NCBI GenBank assembly: GCA_003280885.1 | Contig: QCDN01000002.1 | Span: 9,810-73,809, forward strand | DNA length: 64,000 nucleotides | Source of the DNA: Prochlorococcus sp. AG-355-J04 | GTDB lineage: Bacteria; Cyanobacteriota; Cyanobacteriia; PCC-6307; Cyanobiaceae | Direction: 5' to 3' | In this document: piece by piece, positions 10,150 to 21,253 of the stretch | How the letters are laid out: each line of letters starts with the position of its first letter | Numbering within the stretch: position 1 is the first letter of the stretch | Program-made: the position numbers and the translations under genes | The notes under the pieces: model-generated | What the model saw: the letters and a program-made list of their open reading frames with translations, nothing else | Told to the model about the DNA's origin: nothing | The model's database searches: none

Positions 10150-10935
10150 TTATTTGCGAAGCTTAGGAATTAAAAGGGACGCAACACAAATAACGCTAAT
10201 TGCAGGTCCAGGCGAAAGATTAAAGACTATAGACAGAATAAATCCAAGAAGTGAGATACATAATCCAAAAAATGAAGACCTCATCATTGCAATTCTTAAA
10301 CTATGAGCCTTATTTAGCCCTAACAAAGTTGGCGTAGAAAGAAGAGCAATTACAAGAATTACTCCCACTGCTGACATTGAACTAACAATTACTAATGCCG
10401 TTGTAAAACTCAATGCAAGATTTAATAAAGAAACGTTTATACCGCTTGCGGATGCACCTTCTGGATCCAATCCCACATAAACAACCTTTTCATATCCAAA
10501 AGTCATTAAAAGTATAAATACTAAAAAAGCAATTATTGTTCTCAGTAAATCTCCAAAATTTGCTGTCAATAAATCGCCAAATAATACTGCCTCCAAATCA
10601 ATCCTTATTCCGAGTAAAGGGATTATAAGGACCCCAAATCCAAGCATTCCAGCGAGAATAGTATTCATAACTGCTTCATAATTTTCACTTTTTCTATTAG
10701 TTAAACTTTCCGCAATTACTGAGCCCAGAAGACCACTTATAACACCACCAATTGAGGGGTGGATTCCAAGCGCTAATGCGAGAGCAAGTCCAGGCAACAC
10801 ACAATGAGAGATTAAATTAACTTGTAATAATCTCTTATGAGTGATTAATACAGTTCCCATAGCTGGGCATAAAATCCCAGAGAATATAGTTATTATTAAT
10901 GGAACCAGCCACCAGTTGTTATTAATAAAAGACAT
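10150..10935 (-). CDS. znuB: Zn/Mn ABC transporter permease (ZnuB/ABC-3)
   Basis: ISHCVLPG, LFGDLL and VGVILVIALL motifs; gene context. Confidence 0.85.
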   Translation of the reverse strand: MSFINNNWWLVPLIITIFSGILCPAMGTVLITHKRLLQVNLISHCVLPGLALALALGIHPSIGGVISGLLGSVIAESLTNRKSENYEAVMNTILAGMLGFGVLIIPLLGIRIDLEAVLFGDLLTANFGDLLRTIIAFLVFILLMTFGYEKVVYVGLDPEGASASGINVSLLNLALSFTTALVIVSSMSAVGVILVIALLSTPTLLGLNKAHSLRIAMMRSSFFGLCISLLGFILSIVFNLSPGPAISVICVASLLIPKLRK

Positions 10936-10990
10936 TATTCGAATGATTCGGTATGATCAAAAATACGGGACAAAAAAGATTTCGGAAACA

Positions 10991-11386
10991 ATGGTAACTA
11001 AGTCTGACATTACCAAAAGACAAGAACAACTTCTTGAAGAACTTAATAAATGTGAGGATGAATTGACTGGTCAAGAGTTGCATAGACAATTGATAGAAAG
11101 CGGAAAGGCTATGGGACTGACGACTGTTTACAGGAATCTTCAAGTTCTGATAAAGCATGGCTTAATACGTTCTAGACATCTCCCAACTGGAGAGGTTCTG
11201 TACACTCCCGTAGATAGAGATATTCATCATTTGACCTGTGTTCAATGTGGTGAGACATCAAAAATGGAAGGATGCCCGGTAAAAGATATTCATACACCCA
11301 AAACAAATCCAAAGAAATTCCAATTGTTGTTTCATACCCTCGAATATTTCGGGCTTTGCCAAAACTGTTATCAAGCTCAGAATTAA
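10991..11386 (+). CDS. zur: Fur-family regulator, Zur; true start probably ATG 10991
   Basis: GLTTVYRNL, HHLTCVQCG and C-terminal CxxC; lies inside the znu cluster; the longer 10841 start overlaps znuB. Confidence 0.85.
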   Translation: MVTKSDITKRQEQLLEELNKCEDELTGQELHRQLIESGKAMGLTTVYRNLQVLIKHGLIRSRHLPTGEVLYTPVDRDIHHLTCVQCGETSKMEGCPVKDIHTPKTNPKKFQLLFHTLEYFGLCQNCYQAQN

Positions 11387-11399
11387 AAAGGAACATTCT

Positions 11400-12170
11400 C
11401 TAATCACAGAAATTATTTTCGTTTATAGAGCTAATGTTTATTGCCTCTAATTTATCTTGTATTTGGTCAGGACTACCAACTGCCAAAACACTTTTATCAA
11501 GAACGATTACTTGATCATAGTTATTTAAAGAATCGCCCCAATCATGGCTACTTACGAGCAAAGAAAGTCCGGCATCGGCAAGTTGACGAACAATTTTAAG
11601 AAAATCCTCCTTTGCCGGTGGGTCCAAAGCTGCACAAGGTTCATCTAAAAGAAATATTTTTGCCGGGGACATAAGAGTTTTTGCTAATAGAGCTCTTTGC
11701 TGCTGGCCTCCTGAAAGAGAATCGAGTCTTCTATTCGCCAAACTTGCAATTCCTACTCTCTGCATTGTCGCCTCTAATTCACAACATTTATTAATCCAAG
11801 AATTAGGATATGCTAGAAGAGTCTTAATTTGAAAGGGGTTATTACTTCTTGATTTTGAATACTTTATTTGACCAAGAGATACCAATTTTTCAACTGTGAT
11901 GGGGAACTTCCAATTCATAGAACTTCTTTGAGGCATAAGTGCTACAAGAGCTCTAGATCTATATAAATTTTCACCATCAATTTTTATTTCGCCTTTATCT
12001 GGAGTATTTTGTCCTTGCAAAATTCTCAAAAGAGTTGATTTACCTGCGCCATTTGGGCCAACTAACGCTGTTAGAGTTCCAGGTTTAATCTCAACAGATA
12101 CCTTATTCAAAACTGGCTTACTTTTTTTTGCGTATGCAAAGGTTAAATTTTCAGCGACTAAAGTAGCCAT
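11400..12170 (-). CDS. znuC: Zn/Mn ABC transporter ATPase
   Basis: GPNGAGKST, LSGGQQQR, LLDEP and SSHD motifs. Confidence 0.9.
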   Translation of the reverse strand: MATLVAENLTFAYAKKSKPVLNKVSVEIKPGTLTALVGPNGAGKSTLLRILQGQNTPDKGEIKIDGENLYRSRALVALMPQRSSMNWKFPITVEKLVSLGQIKYSKSRSNNPFQIKTLLAYPNSWINKCCELEATMQRVGIASLANRRLDSLSGGQQQRALLAKTLMSPAKIFLLDEPCAALDPPAKEDFLKIVRQLADAGLSLLVSSHDWGDSLNNYDQVIVLDKSVLAVGSPDQIQDKLEAINISSINENNFCD

Positions 12171-12267: not shown

Positions 12268-12288
12268 TGAAAATGATTATCATTTTTA
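12268..12288. promoter_or_regulatory. Zur box
   Basis: TGAAAATGATTATCATTTTTA, an inverted repeat matching the cyanobacterial Zur consensus, 19 nt upstream of znuA in the divergent znuC/znuA spacer. Confidence 0.8.
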
Positions 12289-12306: not shown

Positions 12307-13848
12307 ATGTCAATTTTTAAAAGACTTTTAACAAATAAAAAAGGTTCGAGTAAATCAATTATTAAAAATTCTGTAATAGCAGGAACAATTATATTTTCTG
12401 GTTTTGGGCAGGATGTTATGGCTAAAGGAAAGTTATATGTAGCAGTAGAACCACTAGTTTGTGATTTAGTTAAATCAATTGCATTACCATCTGACGAAGT
12501 TACATGCTTAGTAGATAGAAAACAAGATGTTCATGACTTAAAGATCAATCCAAGGCAAGCTCAATTACTAAATAGCGCAGATAAAGTATTTACTCTTGGT
12601 AAAGAAATGACTCCAAGTATGAGAAATTGGGAAAACAAAAAGAATACTGTTGTTGTAGGTGTTAGTGCAATAGACGTAGATGATCATTCTGATCATGGAG
12701 GTCATGATGATCACTCAGACCATGGTGGACATGACGATCATTCTGAACATTCAGCTAAAGTAGATGATCGTTCTGATCATGGAGGTCATGATGATCATTC
12801 AGACCATGGAGGACATGATGATCATGCTGAAGGTGCTTTCGAATGGGCAGGCAAATTTCAACTTTCTAAGGGTTCTTACAAATGGTCATTTGAAAAAGTC
12901 GATGGCGAATATGCAGATCCTGCAATGAAGATGGTGATTCTCAAATCTAATGACATAGAAGGGTCTGAAGATTTAGCTAAAGAATTATTAGGATCTAAAG
13001 ACTCAATAAGCAGAAAAAATGATGGTACTTTGATAGCAAGTAATAAAGCTTTTGTTCTTAACTTTGATCAAAGAAAAGAAAGTAATGTTTTTAACGTGGA
13101 TATCAAAGAAGATGGTGAATATATATTTTTTACTGAACACATGCCTTTTGAGTTTGAAGCAACTCAACACTTTTTTAAAGACGTTTCAAATAGTGATGTA
13201 GAACCAATAGCACAAGTTCCAGACGAAGGTGAGGGGCATCATCATCATGACCATGGAGGTCTAGATCCACATGTATGGCATGATCCGCATAACATCATAA
13301 AAATGGGAGATCTTATAAGCAAAAGTTTAAAGAAAGATATTTCAGTTTTTAATAGAGGTGACAGAAAAATAATTAATGAAAGATTCGAAAAAGCTGATTC
13401 TCTCTTAGAAGGCTTAGATAGTTGGATCGTCGAACAAGTAAGTTCTATTCCTGAGGAGAACAGACTAATTGTCTCTAAACACAAAGCAATGGAATACTAC
13501 GGGGATGCATTTGGTTTTGAAACCATTAGTTTACTTGACTTTCTTGGAGACTCCTCAAGCTTAAGGCCAGACAACATAAGTTCTACTTTAAAAATGTTAG
13601 ATGAAGAGAAAGTTCAGGCAATATTTCCTGAACAAATTCCAGCATCTAAGTTATTAAGGAACTTAAGTAGACAAAGTTCAGTTCCTTTAGCTTCTAATCA
13701 AATATTCGTTGATGGATTGATGATGGATGGTAATACGGTTTCAGTTGCTGTTCACAATACTTGTACAATTGTTGACTCATTAGGTGGAAGCTGTGATAAA
13801 GAATCTGGTTCCAATCTTGAGTCTGAATGGTACAAACTTTCAGATTAA
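12307..13848 (+). CDS. znuA: Zinc ABC transporter substrate-binding protein with His-rich repeats and an extra ~105-aa domain
   Basis: Cluster A-I ligand motifs DVHD, DPHVWHD and SKHKA; His/Asp loop; 513 aa. Confidence 0.85.
   Translation: MSIFKRLLTNKKGSSKSIIKNSVIAGTIIFSGFGQDVMAKGKLYVAVEPLVCDLVKSIALPSDEVTCLVDRKQDVHDLKINPRQAQLLNSADKVFTLGKEMTPSMRNWENKKNTVVVGVSAIDVDDHSDHGGHDDHSDHGGHDDHSEHSAKVDDRSDHGGHDDHSDHGGHDDHAEGAFEWAGKFQLSKGSYKWSFEKVDGEYADPAMKMVILKSNDIEGSEDLAKELLGSKDSISRKNDGTLIASNKAFVLNFDQRKESNVFNVDIKEDGEYIFFTEHMPFEFEATQHFFKDVSNSDVEPIAQVPDEGEGHHHHDHGGLDPHVWHDPHNIIKMGDLISKSLKKDISVFNRGDRKIINERFEKADSLLEGLDSWIVEQVSSIPEENRLIVSKHKAMEYYGDAFGFETISLLDFLGDSSSLRPDNISSTLKMLDEEKVQAIFPEQIPASKLLRNLSRQSSVPLASNQIFVDGLMMDGNTVSVAVHNTCTIVDSLGGSCDKESGSNLESEWYKLSD
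12676..12831 (+). repeat. Coding tandem repeat: 27-bp DDHSDHGGH units nested in an 84-bp duplication
   Basis: gta gat gat c(a/g)t tct gat cat gga ggt cat occurs at 12676 and again at 12760. Confidence 0.9.
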
Positions 13849-13925
13849 ATTTTTCTAATAAAAACGGTTTTCATTTCTTATTATTACTATTATTAAACTA
13901 TTGTTTATTTAGTAAAAATCAGTAA

Positions 13926-15275
13926 ATGAGCATCAAAGATAAAGTTCCCGTAACCATCCTCACTGGATTCTTAGGTTCAGGGAAAACTACTTTGCTTAAT
14001 AGAATTTTAAGTGAAGAGCACGGGAAAAGAATAGCCGTAATTGAGAATGAATACGGTGAAGTAGGAATAGATCAAGGTCTCGTAATTAATGCCGATGAAG
14101 AAGTATTTGAGATGTCAAACGGGTGCATTTGTTGTACTGTTCGCGGTGATTTAATAAGAGTCCTTGGCAACCTTATGAAAAGGAGAGATAAGTTTGACTA
14201 TGTTTTAGTAGAAACAACAGGATTAGCAGATCCAGGCCCAGTTGCTCAGACTTTTTTCATGGATGAAGAGATTAGTTCTGAATTTACTCTTGATGGAATT
14301 GTGACTTTAGTTGATGCTGCACATATTGATCAACAGCTAGGCAGGAGTGACGAAAGTTCAGAACAAGTGGCATTTGCAGATGTTCTTGTCCTTAATAAAA
14401 CTGATTTAGTCTCTGATGATGCATTAGATACCCTTGAATCAAGATTGAGAGATATGAATCGAATGACTCGCATTATTAGAGCCGAGAATGCCAAAGTACC
14501 AATTGAAACAGTCTTAAATCTAAGTGCATTTGATCTCGATCAGATCCTTAAACGCAGACCAACATTTCTTGAGCCAGAATATCCTTTTGAATGGACGGGT
14601 GTTTACGATCTAGATGCAGGTAAATATGAATTAATGCTAGAAGAAGGACCCGATCCAGAAATGTCCCTAGTAGCTCTCGTTAACCAGGGTGAGAGTGAGG
14701 AAGAACTTAAAGATGGTGCTGAATCCTCCGTAAGACTTTATGCAGAAAATGCTAATACTTTGGAGCCTGGAAATACTGTCCCATATGGAGAACATGTAAA
14801 TCTAAAATTGGAGGATAAAGGAAATAAATCCTTCATCCTTAACATAGAAAAGCCAACAAAAATAGGTTTGTTTACACAGCACACTGCTGAAGAATTTAAT
14901 ATGAAAGTCATTAAAAGTGACGAAAATAAAGAGATTCCATTTAATACTGAAAGGTTCTGGCAAGCAGAGCATGAACATGATGATGAAGTAGGCTCAATTG
15001 CTATAGAGCGTTTTGGAGATGTTGACCCAGAAAAACTAAATACTTGGATGGGAAGGCTTCTCTCAGAAAAAGGGGTGGATATATTCAGAACTAAAGGTTT
15101 CATAAGTTACTCAGGTAACCCAAGGCGAATAGTTTTCCAGGGGGTACACATGTTATTTACTGCACAACCTGACAAAGAATGGGGTGACGAACCTCGTAGA
15201 AATCAACTTGTTTTTATCGGTAGAAATCTAAATGAGAAAGAGATGCAAGAAGGCTTTGATAAATGCCTGATATAG
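13926..15275 (+). CDS. COG0523/CobW-family G3E metallochaperone GTPase with an internal extra domain
   Basis: GFLGSGKTT, CICC, ETTG and NKTD motifs; CobW_C domain (FRTKG...QGVH...LVFIGR). Confidence 0.92.
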   Translation: MSIKDKVPVTILTGFLGSGKTTLLNRILSEEHGKRIAVIENEYGEVGIDQGLVINADEEVFEMSNGCICCTVRGDLIRVLGNLMKRRDKFDYVLVETTGLADPGPVAQTFFMDEEISSEFTLDGIVTLVDAAHIDQQLGRSDESSEQVAFADVLVLNKTDLVSDDALDTLESRLRDMNRMTRIIRAENAKVPIETVLNLSAFDLDQILKRRPTFLEPEYPFEWTGVYDLDAGKYELMLEEGPDPEMSLVALVNQGESEEELKDGAESSVRLYAENANTLEPGNTVPYGEHVNLKLEDKGNKSFILNIEKPTKIGLFTQHTAEEFNMKVIKSDENKEIPFNTERFWQAEHEHDDEVGSIAIERFGDVDPEKLNTWMGRLLSEKGVDIFRTKGFISYSGNPRRIVFQGVHMLFTAQPDKEWGDEPRRNQLVFIGRNLNEKEMQEGFDKCLI

Positions 15276-16336
15276 AACCATTTAGCCCAAGAGGCATGTT
15301 CCATGAAGGATGGACAGCAGAAGTTAACGATTACGCCATTGCATGTGGCTGGGCTCTTAAAGGTAAACAATTTATTGTTGGCGACGTGGCAGGAGGTCTT
15401 TTTGCATTCGAAGGAGATACTGGAAAAATTATTTGGGAAAAAGAAAATACACACTCTGGAGGTTTACTAGCAATGGCCATTCATCCAGAGGGTGAAATTT
15501 TTGCAACATCAGGTCAGGATGGAAATGTTCAAATTTGTAATTGTCACGAAGGTAAAGTAATTAAAACTCTTGATCTTGGTAAGGGTTGGGTAGAACACCT
15601 CAAGTGGTCTAATGAAGGTTTATTTCTAGCCATAGCTTCATCAAAAAAGGTATATGTTTTTAATGAAGTTGGTGAAGAGAAATGGATCTCAGAAGACCAC
15701 CCAAGCACTGTGAGTGCAATCAAATGGTCAAATAAAAATGAACTAGCTACTGCTTGCTACGGAAGAGTGACATTCTTTGACATAGTTAATAATAAAACGA
15801 ATCAAAAACTCGAGTGGCAAGGATCATTGGTATCTATGGAATTAAGTCCTGATGGAGATATAGTTGCCTGTGGTAGTCAAGACAATTCAGTTCATTTTTG
15901 GAGAAGATCAACTGGGATGGATGCTGAAATGACAGGATACCCTGGTAAACCAAGTCATCTTTCTTTTGATGACAGCGGAAAATTATTAGCAACTAGTGGA
16001 AGTGAAAGAATTACAGTTTGGAGCTTTATAGGAAATGGTCCAGAAGGGACTATGCCAGGAGAGCTATGTCACCATACAGAACCCATTTCAAGCCTAGCCT
16101 TTTCAAATAAAGGTATGCTCGTAGCCTCAGGATCTAGGGATGGTTCTGTTGTCGCAAGTTTCCTAAAGAATGATGGCAATGGAGACCCAGTTGGGGCTGC
16201 ATTCGCCGGGGATTTGGTAGGGGCAATATCATGGAGACCTGATGATTGTGCACTTGCAGCAGTTAATGCAAAAGGTGTTGTAAATGTATGGAAATTTAAA
16301 GTTCGTACTAACCTTTTTTCAAAGGGATTTAAGTAA
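15263..16336 (+). CDS. WD40 beta-propeller protein coupled to the COG0523 gene
   Basis: Repeats such as ATSGQDG.V.I, ACGSQDNSVHFW and ASGSRDG; overlaps the upstream stop codon. Confidence 0.85.
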   Translation: MPDIEPFSPRGMFHEGWTAEVNDYAIACGWALKGKQFIVGDVAGGLFAFEGDTGKIIWEKENTHSGGLLAMAIHPEGEIFATSGQDGNVQICNCHEGKVIKTLDLGKGWVEHLKWSNEGLFLAIASSKKVYVFNEVGEEKWISEDHPSTVSAIKWSNKNELATACYGRVTFFDIVNNKTNQKLEWQGSLVSMELSPDGDIVACGSQDNSVHFWRRSTGMDAEMTGYPGKPSHLSFDDSGKLLATSGSERITVWSFIGNGPEGTMPGELCHHTEPISSLAFSNKGMLVASGSRDGSVVASFLKNDGNGDPVGAAFAGDLVGAISWRPDDCALAAVNAKGVVNVWKFKVRTNLFSKGFK

Positions 16337-17998: not shown

Positions 17999-19441
17999 AT
18001 GAAATATATGTTTTCAAGTTATCAGCCTAAAAATAGTTTTGATGAATACTTTAAGGACAATGTTAACTCTGCTAGAGAAATATTGATTCCACTTCTTTCA
18101 TCCTTAGATAATATGGGACTTGAAGAATTAAACAGGAATCACTCTGCCGCAAAAAAATTATTACTAAGACATGGTGCAACTTTTAGATTAAACGATACTG
18201 GTTTAAAAGGTACTGAGAGAATATTACCTTTTGATCCACTTCCCAGAATAATTAGTAAAGATGATTGGGTAACATTAGAAAAAGGCCTAAAACAAAGGCT
18301 TGAGGCAATAGATTTATTCCTTGATGATATTTATAATGCTCAAAAAATAATAAACGATGGAATAATTCCAAGAGAATTAATAGAGAGTTCAGAAGGTTGG
18401 AGACCTCAGATGATAGGTTTCAAACCTCCACTAAATAAATGGTGTCAAATTTCAGGACTTGATTTAATAAGGGATAGAGAAGGAGATTGGCATGTTTTAG
18501 AAGATAATTTAAGGTGCCCTTCTGGGGTTGCTTATTTTTTAGAAAATAGATTAGTTATGAAAAATATTTTTCCTAATCTTTTCTCAGGAAGAATAGTAAA
18601 ACCAATTGATGAATATCCATCATATCTTTTAAAAACGCTTCAAGAACTTGCTGTTTGGACTGACACTCCCAAGATAGTTCTACTAACTCCAGGAATTTTT
18701 AATAGTGCTTATTTTGAACATAGTTATCTAGCGCAAGAAATGGGCATCCAACTAGTTCAAGGTCATGACTTAGTTTGTAATGATGATTATGTATATTTAA
18801 AAACTACCTCTGGATTAAAAAGAGTAGATGTCATTTACAGGCGAATTGATGATGATTTCTTAGATCCTCTTAATTTCAGAAAAGATTCCTGCCTTGGTGT
18901 TAGCGGATTACTTGATGTTTTTAAGGCAGGTCATGTTGCCTTAGCAAATGCACCTGGTACTGGAATAGCAGATGACAAAATGATTTATTCTTTTGTTCCC
19001 AAAATGATTAAATATTATCTTGATGAAGATATTATTATTAAAAATGTAGAAACGTATATTTGTCATTATCAAAAGGATCGTGAATATGTCCTAAAAAATT
19101 TATCAAAACTTGTTGTTAAGTCTGTCGCAGAAGCTGGTGGTTATGGAATGTTAATTGGCCCTCACTCAACAACGAGTGAGATAGAAGAATTCGCTGATAA
19201 AATTAAAAATAATCCTAGAAATTTCATAGCACAACCAACATTAGAATTATCTACTGTGCCATCGTTATGTGATGGAGAACTATATCCATGTCATGTTGAT
19301 TTAAGACCATATATCTTAAGAGGAAAAGATTCATGGGTTAGCTCAGGCGGGTTAACGAGAGTAGCATTAAAAAAAGGATCATTAGTCGTTAATTCTTCTC
19401 AAGGTGGAGGATGCAAAGATACATGGGTTGTAGGTAAATAA
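17999..19441 (+). CDS. Circularly permuted type 2 ATP-grasp protein (COG2308)
   Basis: VLEDNLRCPSG, YRRIDDDFLDP, GGYG, HVDLRPY, GGLTRVAL and NSSQGGGCKDTWV motifs. Confidence 0.93.
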   Translation: MKYMFSSYQPKNSFDEYFKDNVNSAREILIPLLSSLDNMGLEELNRNHSAAKKLLLRHGATFRLNDTGLKGTERILPFDPLPRIISKDDWVTLEKGLKQRLEAIDLFLDDIYNAQKIINDGIIPRELIESSEGWRPQMIGFKPPLNKWCQISGLDLIRDREGDWHVLEDNLRCPSGVAYFLENRLVMKNIFPNLFSGRIVKPIDEYPSYLLKTLQELAVWTDTPKIVLLTPGIFNSAYFEHSYLAQEMGIQLVQGHDLVCNDDYVYLKTTSGLKRVDVIYRRIDDDFLDPLNFRKDSCLGVSGLLDVFKAGHVALANAPGTGIADDKMIYSFVPKMIKYYLDEDIIIKNVETYICHYQKDREYVLKNLSKLVVKSVAEAGGYGMLIGPHSTTSEIEEFADKIKNNPRNFIAQPTLELSTVPSLCDGELYPCHVDLRPYILRGKDSWVSSGGLTRVALKKGSLVVNSSQGGGCKDTWVVGK

Positions 19442-19442
19442 T

Positions 19443-20384
19443 ATGCTTTTAAGTCGTGTAGCAGAATCTCTTTATTGGATCAATCGGTATTTAGAACGTG
19501 CGGAAAATATATCTCGTTTCGTGGAAGTAAGCGAAGCAATGTCATTAGATTGTCCGCCAGGAAGTGCAGAACCTTGGCTCCCGTTAATTGACGCTTCTAG
19601 TGACAGAGAATCTTTTGATAAAAGATTCCCAGAGAAAAAACCTGATGACGTTATTAATTTTTTAATAAGAGATCGTTTAAATCCAAATAGCATAATTTCT
19701 TGCATTCAAATGGCAAGAGAAAATGCAAGACAAATCAGAGATGTCATGACCACAGAAATGTGGGAACAAATTAATATTTTATATTGGAATATGCAAGAAG
19801 GAGAGGCAATATGGAATAAACCAAGACAAGAACAATTAAGTGAAATAAGGAGGGAATGTCAGCTTTTTTATGGAATTACAGATGCGACTCTAAGCAAAGA
19901 TCTTGCCTGGAGATTCTGCATTCTTGGTAGATTAATCGAAAGAGCTGACAAAACATCAAGAATTTTAGATGTTAAATATTATTTACTCCTACCCAGCTTA
20001 GATGAACTTGGAGGAGTTCTTGATGAGCTGCAATGGATTGCACTTTTACGTTCAGCTGGAGCTTATCAAATGTTTAGGAAAGCAGTGCAAAATTCTATAA
20101 AGCCTAATTCAGTTGCGAGATTTCTTTTACTTGATCCAATTTTCCCTAGATCAGTAAGATACTGTCTTGATGGGATAAGCAATACTCTTAAAACAATAGA
20201 TACCTCTCCAAGTACTGAAAATCCTTCAGAATTAGAATGCATGAGAGGTTTGCTTAAAGCAAAGTGGAGTTATATCAGAATTGAAGATATAATCAATGAT
20301 GGTTTACATGAGGCAATCGATTCATTGCAAATGGATTTAAATAAATTAAATGATCTCATTCAAGAAAAATATTTTATTAATTAA
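19443..20384 (+). CDS. Alpha-E domain protein (COG2307)
   Basis: MLLSRVAESLYW..RYLERAE, GRLIERADKTSR and FPRSV motifs. Confidence 0.93.
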   Translation: MLLSRVAESLYWINRYLERAENISRFVEVSEAMSLDCPPGSAEPWLPLIDASSDRESFDKRFPEKKPDDVINFLIRDRLNPNSIISCIQMARENARQIRDVMTTEMWEQINILYWNMQEGEAIWNKPRQEQLSEIRRECQLFYGITDATLSKDLAWRFCILGRLIERADKTSRILDVKYYLLLPSLDELGGVLDELQWIALLRSAGAYQMFRKAVQNSIKPNSVARFLLLDPIFPRSVRYCLDGISNTLKTIDTSPSTENPSELECMRGLLKAKWSYIRIEDIINDGLHEAIDSLQMDLNKLNDLIQEKYFIN

Positions 20385-20395
20385 TAAGTTTATTA

Positions 20396-21253
20396 ATGAG
20401 AATTAAATACATTCACAAACTTGAATATAAATACGAAGACCCTGTTCAATTAGGCGAGCATAGATTATGTATAAAGCCAAGGTCAAATGGATTCCAAAAG
20501 CTAAAGAATTTTGAATTAAAAATAACCCCAGAACCAGAAATCATTTATCCATTACTTGCTGCCAGCGGAGAAGAGATTAATAGAATCAGATTCAATGGAT
20601 TAACAGATAATTTAATTATTGAATCAATCAGTGAAGTAGAAACTATTAAACATCCAAACATTATTGATGGAGTTAAAAATAGAGATTTAACATTACCTTT
20701 TTGTAGAAGTATTATTAACAGAGATTTGCAGGGAGCATTAGAGGGATGGATGCCTAATGGACAACATGACCCATCTGCTGTAGAACTTGCCCAAGAAGCC
20801 TTAGCAGGAAGCATTAATAACGCATTATCATTTACCTACCAGTTAATAGAGATAATTCAAGATCGGGTTAAATATACCAAAAGACATACAGGTCCTGCAT
20901 GGCCGGCTAGCAGAACACTAAGAGAACGTATAGGTTCATGCAGAGATTTAGCAATGCTGATGGTTGAAGCTTGCAGGTCTATAGGTATCCCAAGCAGGTT
21001 TGTAAGTGGTTATCATTTTGAAGATCCTTTACCCTCTGAGTTGGATTTACACGCTTGGGCTGAATTATATATTCCAGGTGCTGGTTGGAGAGGTTTTGAT
21101 CCAAGCGGGAAAGGATTAATAGATGATAGATATTTAACATTGGTATCATCTTCAAAATCTAATTTAACCTCTGTAATTACAGGAAACTTTATAGGAAAAA
21201 ATAATCTAGAAAATACTTTATCCTGGGAAATCAAACCTCTTGAAATTAAATAA
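20396..21253 (+). CDS. Transglutaminase-like protein (COG1305)
   Basis: Catalytic triad motifs GSCRDLA, LHAWAE and GFDPS; N-terminal Bact_transglu_N-like region. Confidence 0.92.
   Translation: MRIKYIHKLEYKYEDPVQLGEHRLCIKPRSNGFQKLKNFELKITPEPEIIYPLLAASGEEINRIRFNGLTDNLIIESISEVETIKHPNIIDGVKNRDLTLPFCRSIINRDLQGALEGWMPNGQHDPSAVELAQEALAGSINNALSFTYQLIEIIQDRVKYTKRHTGPAWPASRTLRERIGSCRDLAMLMVEACRSIGIPSRFVSGYHFEDPLPSELDLHAWAELYIPGAGWRGFDPSGKGLIDDRYLTLVSSSKSNLTSVITGNFIGKNNLENTLSWEIKPLEIK

Follow-up and report, generated by a model that had tools for sequence, protein, structure and literature searches.

A putative metal-capture domain inserted in ZnuA and in a neighboring COG0523 GTPase of Prochlorococcus

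In branch 1a of the cyanobacterial COG0523 proteins, an insert of about 150 amino acids (aa) that is not His-rich was described as a possible domain in its own right; four to six strands and one or two helices were predicted in it, and it had no InterPro match (Barnett 2012, PMC3323870). In pneumococcal AdcA, either the His loop or a C-terminal accessory domain can be lost, but not the two together, and the accessory region is needed only under zinc restriction (PMC7858048). Here we analyze 64,000 nucleotides of Prochlorococcus sp. AG-355-J04 (contig QCDN01000002.1, positions 9,810 to 73,809; this whole stretch is the window), in which the zinc-uptake gene znuA and an adjacent COG0523 GTPase gene each carry an insert. 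We hold with moderate confidence that the inserts are one unnamed mobile domain of about 130 residues, with the predicted fold of a beta-sandwich, in which a clustered Glu-Asp-His-Glu set likely holds a single divalent transition-metal ion (probably zinc in this case), and that the domain would pass this ion to the main site of its host. The two genes and their inserts are as follows.

12307..13848, + strand: znuA, cluster A-I solute-binding protein of 513 aa, with a split Pfam ZnuA match (Pfam scan)
12676..12831, + strand: His/Asp-rich repeat tract of DDHSDHGGH units, upstream of the insert in znuA (direct DNA repeats)
12835..13230, + strand: domain copy 1, ZnuA aa 177-308 (BLASTP, HHalign, AlphaFold2); candidate ligands, from conservation, E179 (12841), D204 (12916), H278 (13138) and E282 (13150)
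13237..13254, + strand: HHHHDH tract downstream of the ZnuA insert
13926..15275, + strand: COG0523 GTPase of 449 aa, with cobW at aa 8-184, GCICC at 66 and CobW_C at aa 356-448
14583..14969, + strand: domain copy 2, at COG0523 aa 220-348 within the linker that joins the GTPase domain to the C-terminal domain; candidate ligands E222 (14589), D243 (14652), H319 (14880) and E323 (14892)
14970..14984, + strand: HEHDD motif, after copy 2

The two inserts aligned in BLASTP with 33/110 identities (30% over 110 aa, E=2e-6). A profile made only of ZnuA copies (6 rows) matched one made only of COG0523 copies (14 rows) in HHalign with a probability of 98.26 and E=2.3e-14 across 118 columns, which upholds the original prediction, made from the sequence of the window, that both proteins carry the same domain. 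Its coordinates were correct (F178 of ZnuA at 12838 and F221 of the COG0523 protein at 14586), and the three motif pairs that it quoted are present. The domain had been given as about 105 aa; this segment is indeed shared, but the length had to be extended to about 130 aa (12835-13230 and 14583-14969), because the models add two or three strands past the EF motif and G295/P300-type positions are conserved there. His tracts had been placed around both copies. They lie on both sides of the ZnuA copy, whereas the COG0523 copy has a short HEHDD after it only. The DNA of the HHHHDH tract resembles the last of the upstream repeat units (72%), and repeats therefore bracket copy 1.

As had been expected of a beta-rich module, AlphaFold2 predicted one fold for both inserts, a beta-sandwich with a single long helix. 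The mean predicted local distance difference test (pLDDT) score was 89.6 with a mixed alignment and 93.4 for the COG0523 insert with a COG0523-only alignment. In each model three strands, the long helix, and five strands (one of them too short for listing in the COG0523 model) are followed by a short helical turn beyond the His and then by two or three more strands; the likeness was judged by this order of elements in the two models. Fold searches in PDB and BFVD gave weak neighbors resembling jelly-rolls or carbohydrate-binding modules (CBM), the best at Z 5.1 (root-mean-square deviation 3.9, 100 aligned) and Z 5.7 (root-mean-square deviation 3.3, 87 aligned). No Foldseek E<=0.001 and no Z>=8 occurred in these searches, which does not establish a new fold, and jelly-roll CBM, GOLD and PA14-like domains gave no significant structural match in them. 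A homodimer prediction with zinc scored 0.00 and is no evidence either way. By sequence, 0 families of Pfam and NCBIfam matched either insert at E<=1 (the Pfam ZnuA and cobW/CobW_C matches skip the inserts), PHROGs gave one match with E=0.07 over 42 aa, and a PDB sequence search with the inserts returned nothing significant. The domain is thus without a family name in these four collections, in keeping with the original prediction, which could name no family for it.

To find further hosts, which the original prediction had proposed, a 15-row profile of ZnuA and COG0523 copies was searched against 1.84 billion cluster representatives, and 760 clusters matched at E<=0.001. A count of 3167 matches was set aside because its profile included the CobW_C flank. 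Hosts were called in the best 150 of the 760 clusters (Pfam host at E<=1e-5). All 84 clusters with a Pfam host were metal transporters or chaperones: COG0523 (36), ZnuA (26), ZIP (15), CusB/CzcB-type adaptors (4), CDF (1), CbiM (1), and CbtA (1). The remainder were sorted by eye into COG0523 fragments (25), ZnuA fragments (7), eukaryote-looking secreted or ZIP-like proteins (17), small stand-alone lipoproteins (11), membrane proteins (4), and a TPR fusion with one relative (2). With at least seven host families and 0, 1, or 2 copies in ZnuA, the domain is mobile, as had been proposed. In 26/152 proteins the copy number reaches two, in ZnuA and at the N-termini of ZIP proteins.

Among the named hosts are a CDF of Paenibacillus, metal-binding proteins and stand-alone copies from haloarchaea, and a COG0523 protein on a Pantoea plasmid, whose gene is followed by a WD40 gene. 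Domain-bearing COG0523 proteins were labeled Planctomycetota, Chloroflexota, Oligoflexales, Labilithrix, and Leucothrix. The ZIP hosts may be algal, judging by their protein make-up and by a sub-threshold ESM Atlas lead (best scores 0.84-0.86; 2/3 clusters eukaryotic, Haptophyta commonest). Two of four plasmid copies outside ZnuA and COG0523 lie within metal gene clusters. On a Natrinema plasmid, a stand-alone copy (L134 6893-7444) is directly 3' of a urease operon, a nickel context. On an Alicyclobacillus plasmid, a copy sits inside a membrane protein with no Pfam match, among cation transporters and a metal-sensitive regulator; by one motif, this protein resembles nickel/cobalt permeases. 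No relative was found in viral contigs. A metagenome scan with one lipoprotein gave a single locus covering query residues 6-95 only, mostly its His-rich N-terminus, and a lipoprotein alignment search found no longer fusions, which is weak evidence. The best 80 of 317 matches in a scan of genome contigs were near-identical Prochlorococcus loci only.

Two further groups of proteins bear the domain. One is a His-rich membrane-anchored family of 517-589 aa with no Pfam match and the domain near its C-terminus (P0253, P0257, P0264). The other comprises secreted eukaryote-like proteins with tandem copies (P0130, P0190, P0272), and in P0130 there is also a Cys-rich, HHD-containing region, with no Pfam match.

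Conservation was scored across 166 full copies (ZnuA numbering). The highest values were for H278 (98%), E179 (95%), F283 (95%), W180 (94%), E282 (94%), G182 (90%), D204 (87%), and P280 (86%); position 277 was E or Q in 94%, and most other columns were variable. Glu179, Asp204, His278, and Glu282 were jointly kept in 123/143 complete copies, including 27/27 ZnuA, 21/22 ZIP, and 10/10 lipoprotein copies, and 14 of the 20 copies missing some of them were COG0523 proteins or fragments. Of the ligands suggested earlier (E, D, M, H, and E), these four stand as candidates. Met207 was downgraded as a general ligand, since its conservation is far lower (79% overall, 4/10 lipoproteins, 13/27 COG0523 copies). 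Neither insert contains Cys.

A mean-field covariation analysis of low depth (540 rows, effective number of sequences 184) ranked the pairs D204-E282 first, E179-E282 third, D204-H278 sixth, and E179-H278 thirtieth (4/5 eligible pairs). Variable neighbors also covaried (A206-E277, M209-T276, I211-F274, F178-E277, F178-P205), which brings the ends of the N-terminal strand, strand 3, and strand 8 together and places the four residues at one predicted end of the sandwich. E179, D204, H278, and E282 thus likely form one metal site, and a donor set of one nitrogen and three oxygens (N1O3) lends itself to the exchangeable binding of various divalent ions, which accords with hosts for Zn, Co, and Ni.

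The same residues could instead form a structural site, holding Ca2+ or Mg2+ or a hydrogen-bond network, in a domain that serves as a rigid spacer to display His tracts. Many jelly-roll and CBM-like domains use structural calcium, the weak fold neighbors (Z 5.1-5.7) are of that kind, and His tracts usually adjoin the domain, being present within 20 residues of 29/29 ZnuA, 32/37 COG0523, 10/10 lipoprotein, and 13/24 ZIP copies. We consider a spacer unlikely: the most conserved residue is a His, the ZIP copies retain the site although tracts are near only about half of them, and the two-copy ZnuA allele described below has dropped its upstream tract. Recognition of a small organic ligand or a metal-ligand complex, from which the metal would be stripped, was also weighed, because the fold class resembles carbohydrate-binding jelly-rolls (all below significance) and the conserved W180 and F283 flank the site. 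It is the least probable of the alternatives, a very long shot in our estimation; no fold match was significant in PDB or BFVD, and one and the same site in cytoplasmic and extracytoplasmic copies is easier to reconcile with a bare ion than with a seawater ligand.

Metal binding and hand-off, as suggested by the host families, conservation, and covariation, might work as follows. In the periplasm, the ZnuA copy would collect Zn2+ (or Co2+) beside the His tracts and feed the primary ZnuA site. Outside the cell, the domain would raise local zinc or cobalt at the entry site of ZnuA or ZIP. In the cytoplasm, the COG0523 copy would hold incoming metal near the CxCC site, and the domain of a CDF could act likewise. 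The domain would be an accessory able to replace the His loop and not essential to uptake.

ZnuA alleles with 0, 1, and 2 copies of the domain bear on this role. In a genus sample of 158 genomes at least 80% complete, 139 had this znuA, with one copy in about 110 genomes, two in 10, and none in 17. The classes were assigned by frame length and matched range (two genomes fall in two classes, and 4 are unclear), and 6/17 no-copy and 2/10 two-copy alleles were confirmed by sequence. An 873-aa two-copy ZnuA frame in genome G371 was discarded as an assembly artefact across an N gap. The COG0523 copy was retained at 6/6 no-copy znuA loci read. Five of these six alleles belong to a divergent type (C-terminal lobe identity about 68%), and the genes around them are mostly 92-98% identical to those of the window (znuC 82%), which points to allele exchange. 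The sixth (genome G587, L138 3332-4450, - strand) is 94-95% identical to the window znuA on both sides of an in-frame loss of 140 codons that removes the whole domain, with the join in the His-codon repeats bracketing it; it was seen in a single genome and is possibly an amplification chimera.

In the loops of two-copy alleles, the median number of His before the first copy was 0 (79 distinct loops) vs 15 in one-copy alleles (70 loops), and the median total was 9 vs 20, with 18.5 in no-copy alleles (6 loops). The loops are those of closely related genomes and do not count as independent events. Two-copy alleles have traded the upstream His tract for an extra copy. RNA-library contigs spanned both inserts in 4/4 runs, which cannot prove transcription, and in the ocean RNA library X3 loose ends matched all three allele types.

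Two genomes hold two znuA alleles. In G542, the two znuA alleles (L141, L142) are the core locus and a lone one-domain gene among island-like genes; in G644 (L139, L140), they are the core locus and a two-domain gene beside zur-like and metallophosphoesterase-like genes. Zinc-homeostasis cargo is listed in a tycheposon preprint. In G361 (L049 3573-3956, - strand), the COG0523 protein after znuA is cut to 128 aa, and a full insert-bearing COG0523 gene lies far away.

Copy number and hosts also speak to a different use of the bound metal, namely as a buffer or sensor that would hold back uptake or chaperone activity when metal is abundant and would not feed the main site. The domain does occur on exporters or efflux parts (the CDF C-terminus and the four CusB/CzcB-type adaptors), and Wei 2007 reportedly claims, in its title, a regulatory role for the ZnuA His loop. 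Most hosts are, however, importers, or chaperones tied in print to zinc starvation, and copies rise to two in ZnuA and in ZIP N-termini, with the second copy of ZnuA replacing a His tract. We regard a buffer or sensor as unlikely, if the least unlikely of the alternatives, and favor capture and delivery.

Several observations weigh against capture and delivery. The ZnuA copy is missing from about 17/139 relatives, so it is dispensable there. The host list is biased toward ZnuA and COG0523 by the origin of the profile, 150 of 760 clusters were inspected, and 66 of these 150 are without a Pfam host, the TPR fusion among them. In the neighborhood of two of the four stand-alone plasmid copies, metal genes are absent. 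Near-invariant columns may couple through a few degenerate rows, which makes the ranks of the ligand pairs weak evidence. N1O3 donors are not specific to zinc. Which metal this class of ZnuA takes is itself unsettled in print (PMC8786288).

In a tree of 80 rows of the domain, the two window copies lie on opposite sides of a branch with a Shimodaira-Hasegawa-like approximate likelihood ratio test (SH-aLRT) support of 97-98. One group of 39 rows (support 97-98) holds the ZnuA copy together with those of other ZnuA, ZIP, and eukaryote-like proteins; outside it, among COG0523 and CzcB-type copies, lies the COG0523 copy of the window. A subfamily loop also differs, KVDGxYADP in the ZnuA type vs GPDP in the COG0523 type. 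Local duplication between the neighboring genes was rejected: forcing the window copies together gave p=0.0002 in the approximately unbiased (AU) test, in which the constrained group (window copies and nearest relatives, 4 rows) was picked after the first tree had been seen. These were quick trees on 130 columns and 80/155 domain rows, with fragment classes dropped and large classes subsampled. On these trees, the two copies are from different subfamilies and are not recent duplicates.

The ZnuA insert is 96-99% identical to those in named Prochlorococcus records, and the window was assigned to high-light Prochlorococcus. In the host's taxonomic family, 56/251 genomes contain the domain; in the two larger genomes of this family that were examined, it occurs in COG0523 with no insert-bearing ZnuA nearby. 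A phylum sample gave matches of the COG0523 copy in 15/301 genomes, 7 of them outside the family. The host ZnuA matches Pfam ZnuA with 143 bits (cut-off 29) and has His, not Glu, at the third ligand motif. From motif positions, H76, H322, H392, and D469 are presumably its primary-site ligands. Its family and N-terminus suggest a periplasmic location. Other features of the locus are the following.

10150..10935, - strand: znuB permease (ABC-3)
10841..11386, + strand: Fur-family regulator (zur), real start probably downstream of the listed GTG
11400..12170, - strand: znuC ABC ATPase
12268..12282, strand none: Zur-box-like palindrome in the znuC-znuA intergenic region, 1 mismatch to the consensus
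15263..16336, + strand: WD40 beta-propeller gene, overlapping the COG0523 stop
17999-21253: three-gene cluster of putative circularly permuted ATP-grasp, alpha-E, and transglutaminase-like genes

The Zur-box-like site is the sole match with 1 mismatch within the 64 kb; 10/100 shuffles also gave one, so the site rests on position as much as on rarity, and with 2 mismatches allowed the pattern showed no excess over chance. A box is at the same place in Prochlorococcus (Barnett 2012, PMC3323870), and the same divergent layout in Synechococcus WH8102 is Zur-repressed and zinc-regulated (PMC9337993). The COG0523 gene adjoins the WD40 gene and znuABC/zur, which matches the context of the Barnett branch 1a insert. 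A link to WD40 was reported for COG0523 subfamily 5, which takes in most eukaryotic COG0523 proteins (Haas 2009). A WD40 gene also follows insert-bearing COG0523 genes in distant genomes outside the taxonomic family and on the Pantoea plasmid.

This recurrence in distant genomes, together with the common tandem copies, would be expected of a docking module for the permease, the WD40 partner, or client proteins. Docking accords poorly with surface positions that vary freely among hosts while the four-residue polar cluster is kept, and with host partners that are unrelated and in different compartments; we judge it improbable, more so than a buffer or a spacer.

Uptake of zinc and cobalt by open-ocean plankton at picomolar levels is a standing question. 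A small Cys-free domain that carries four candidate ligands and is predicted to fold by itself is simple to produce and assay, and natural 0-, 1-, and 2-copy alleles can readily be set against maps of ocean metals as a field test. Should the domain bind metal, it would annotate at least 760 sequence clusters, including the hitherto unassigned N-termini of eukaryote-looking ZIP transporters, and would join the short list of accessory metal-capture domains. A broader possibility, which we would sooner doubt than assert, is that this is a metal-capture fold common to bacteria, archaea, and marine algae, carried on either side of the membrane by importers, exporters, and chaperones as a general folded replacement for His-rich loops; Prochlorococcus would then tune Zn/Co scavenging through alleles with 0, 1, or 2 copies, and tandem copies in algal ZIP proteins would form a surface antenna for picomolar zinc.

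The nearest working analogy is AdcA, a cluster A-I binding protein whose fused accessory region is redundant with the His loop. We take the AdcA accessory domain to be of the ZinT type. Dispensability of the ZnuA copy and its swap with a His tract fit the tested behavior of AdcA, namely redundancy of loop and accessory domain. The two differ in that no sequence match was found (the AdcA model NF033605 matches ZnuA aa 307-408 only, with no Pfam match on the insert) and in that the insert is located within the loop instead of at the C-terminus and occurs in cytoplasmic proteins too. The ZinT fold was not among the rows of the fold search, which does not exclude a shared fold. His-rich loops of ZnuA/AztC-type proteins and the His stretch of COG0523 have the same position and the same proposed role in raising local zinc (PMC8786288; PMC2770081), but the insert is a predicted folded domain with a fixed four-residue site and not a low-complexity tract.

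Small or surface-exposed accessory proteins for zinc capture include ZrgA (PMC9820375), ZepA (PMC10957091), and the diatom protein ZCRP-B (PMC9010474). Like the insert, ZrgA and ZepA have beta-sandwich parts. ZrgA is ferredoxin-like with a disulfide, whereas the insert is without Cys, and the ZrgA model NF047873 matched ZnuA only at aa 86-179 (the His tract), with 26 bits vs a cut-off of 185. ZCRP-B is NikA-like, unlike the insert, and ZepA is set beside it by description only.

The branch 1a insert is in all likelihood the COG0523 copy itself, since it was described in Prochlorococcus and WH8102 proteins adjoining the WD40 gene, and the window protein has the same long non-His insert between its GTPase and C-terminal domains. 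The examined text of Barnett 2012 draws no connection from it to ZnuA or to further hosts, nor does it suggest ligands or a function. A literature search of titles, abstract openings, and passages found neither a name nor a ligand proposal, nor any tie between the insert and ZnuA or further hosts; outside its scope were Blindauer 2008 (Chem Biodivers), Scanlan 2009, and the remainder and supplements of Barnett 2012, which may mention the ZnuA insert. The COG0523 insert has thus been known as a possible domain since 2012, and what is new here is a domain family of a known functional kind, that of accessory metal capture, to which the sequence evidence suggests that it belongs.

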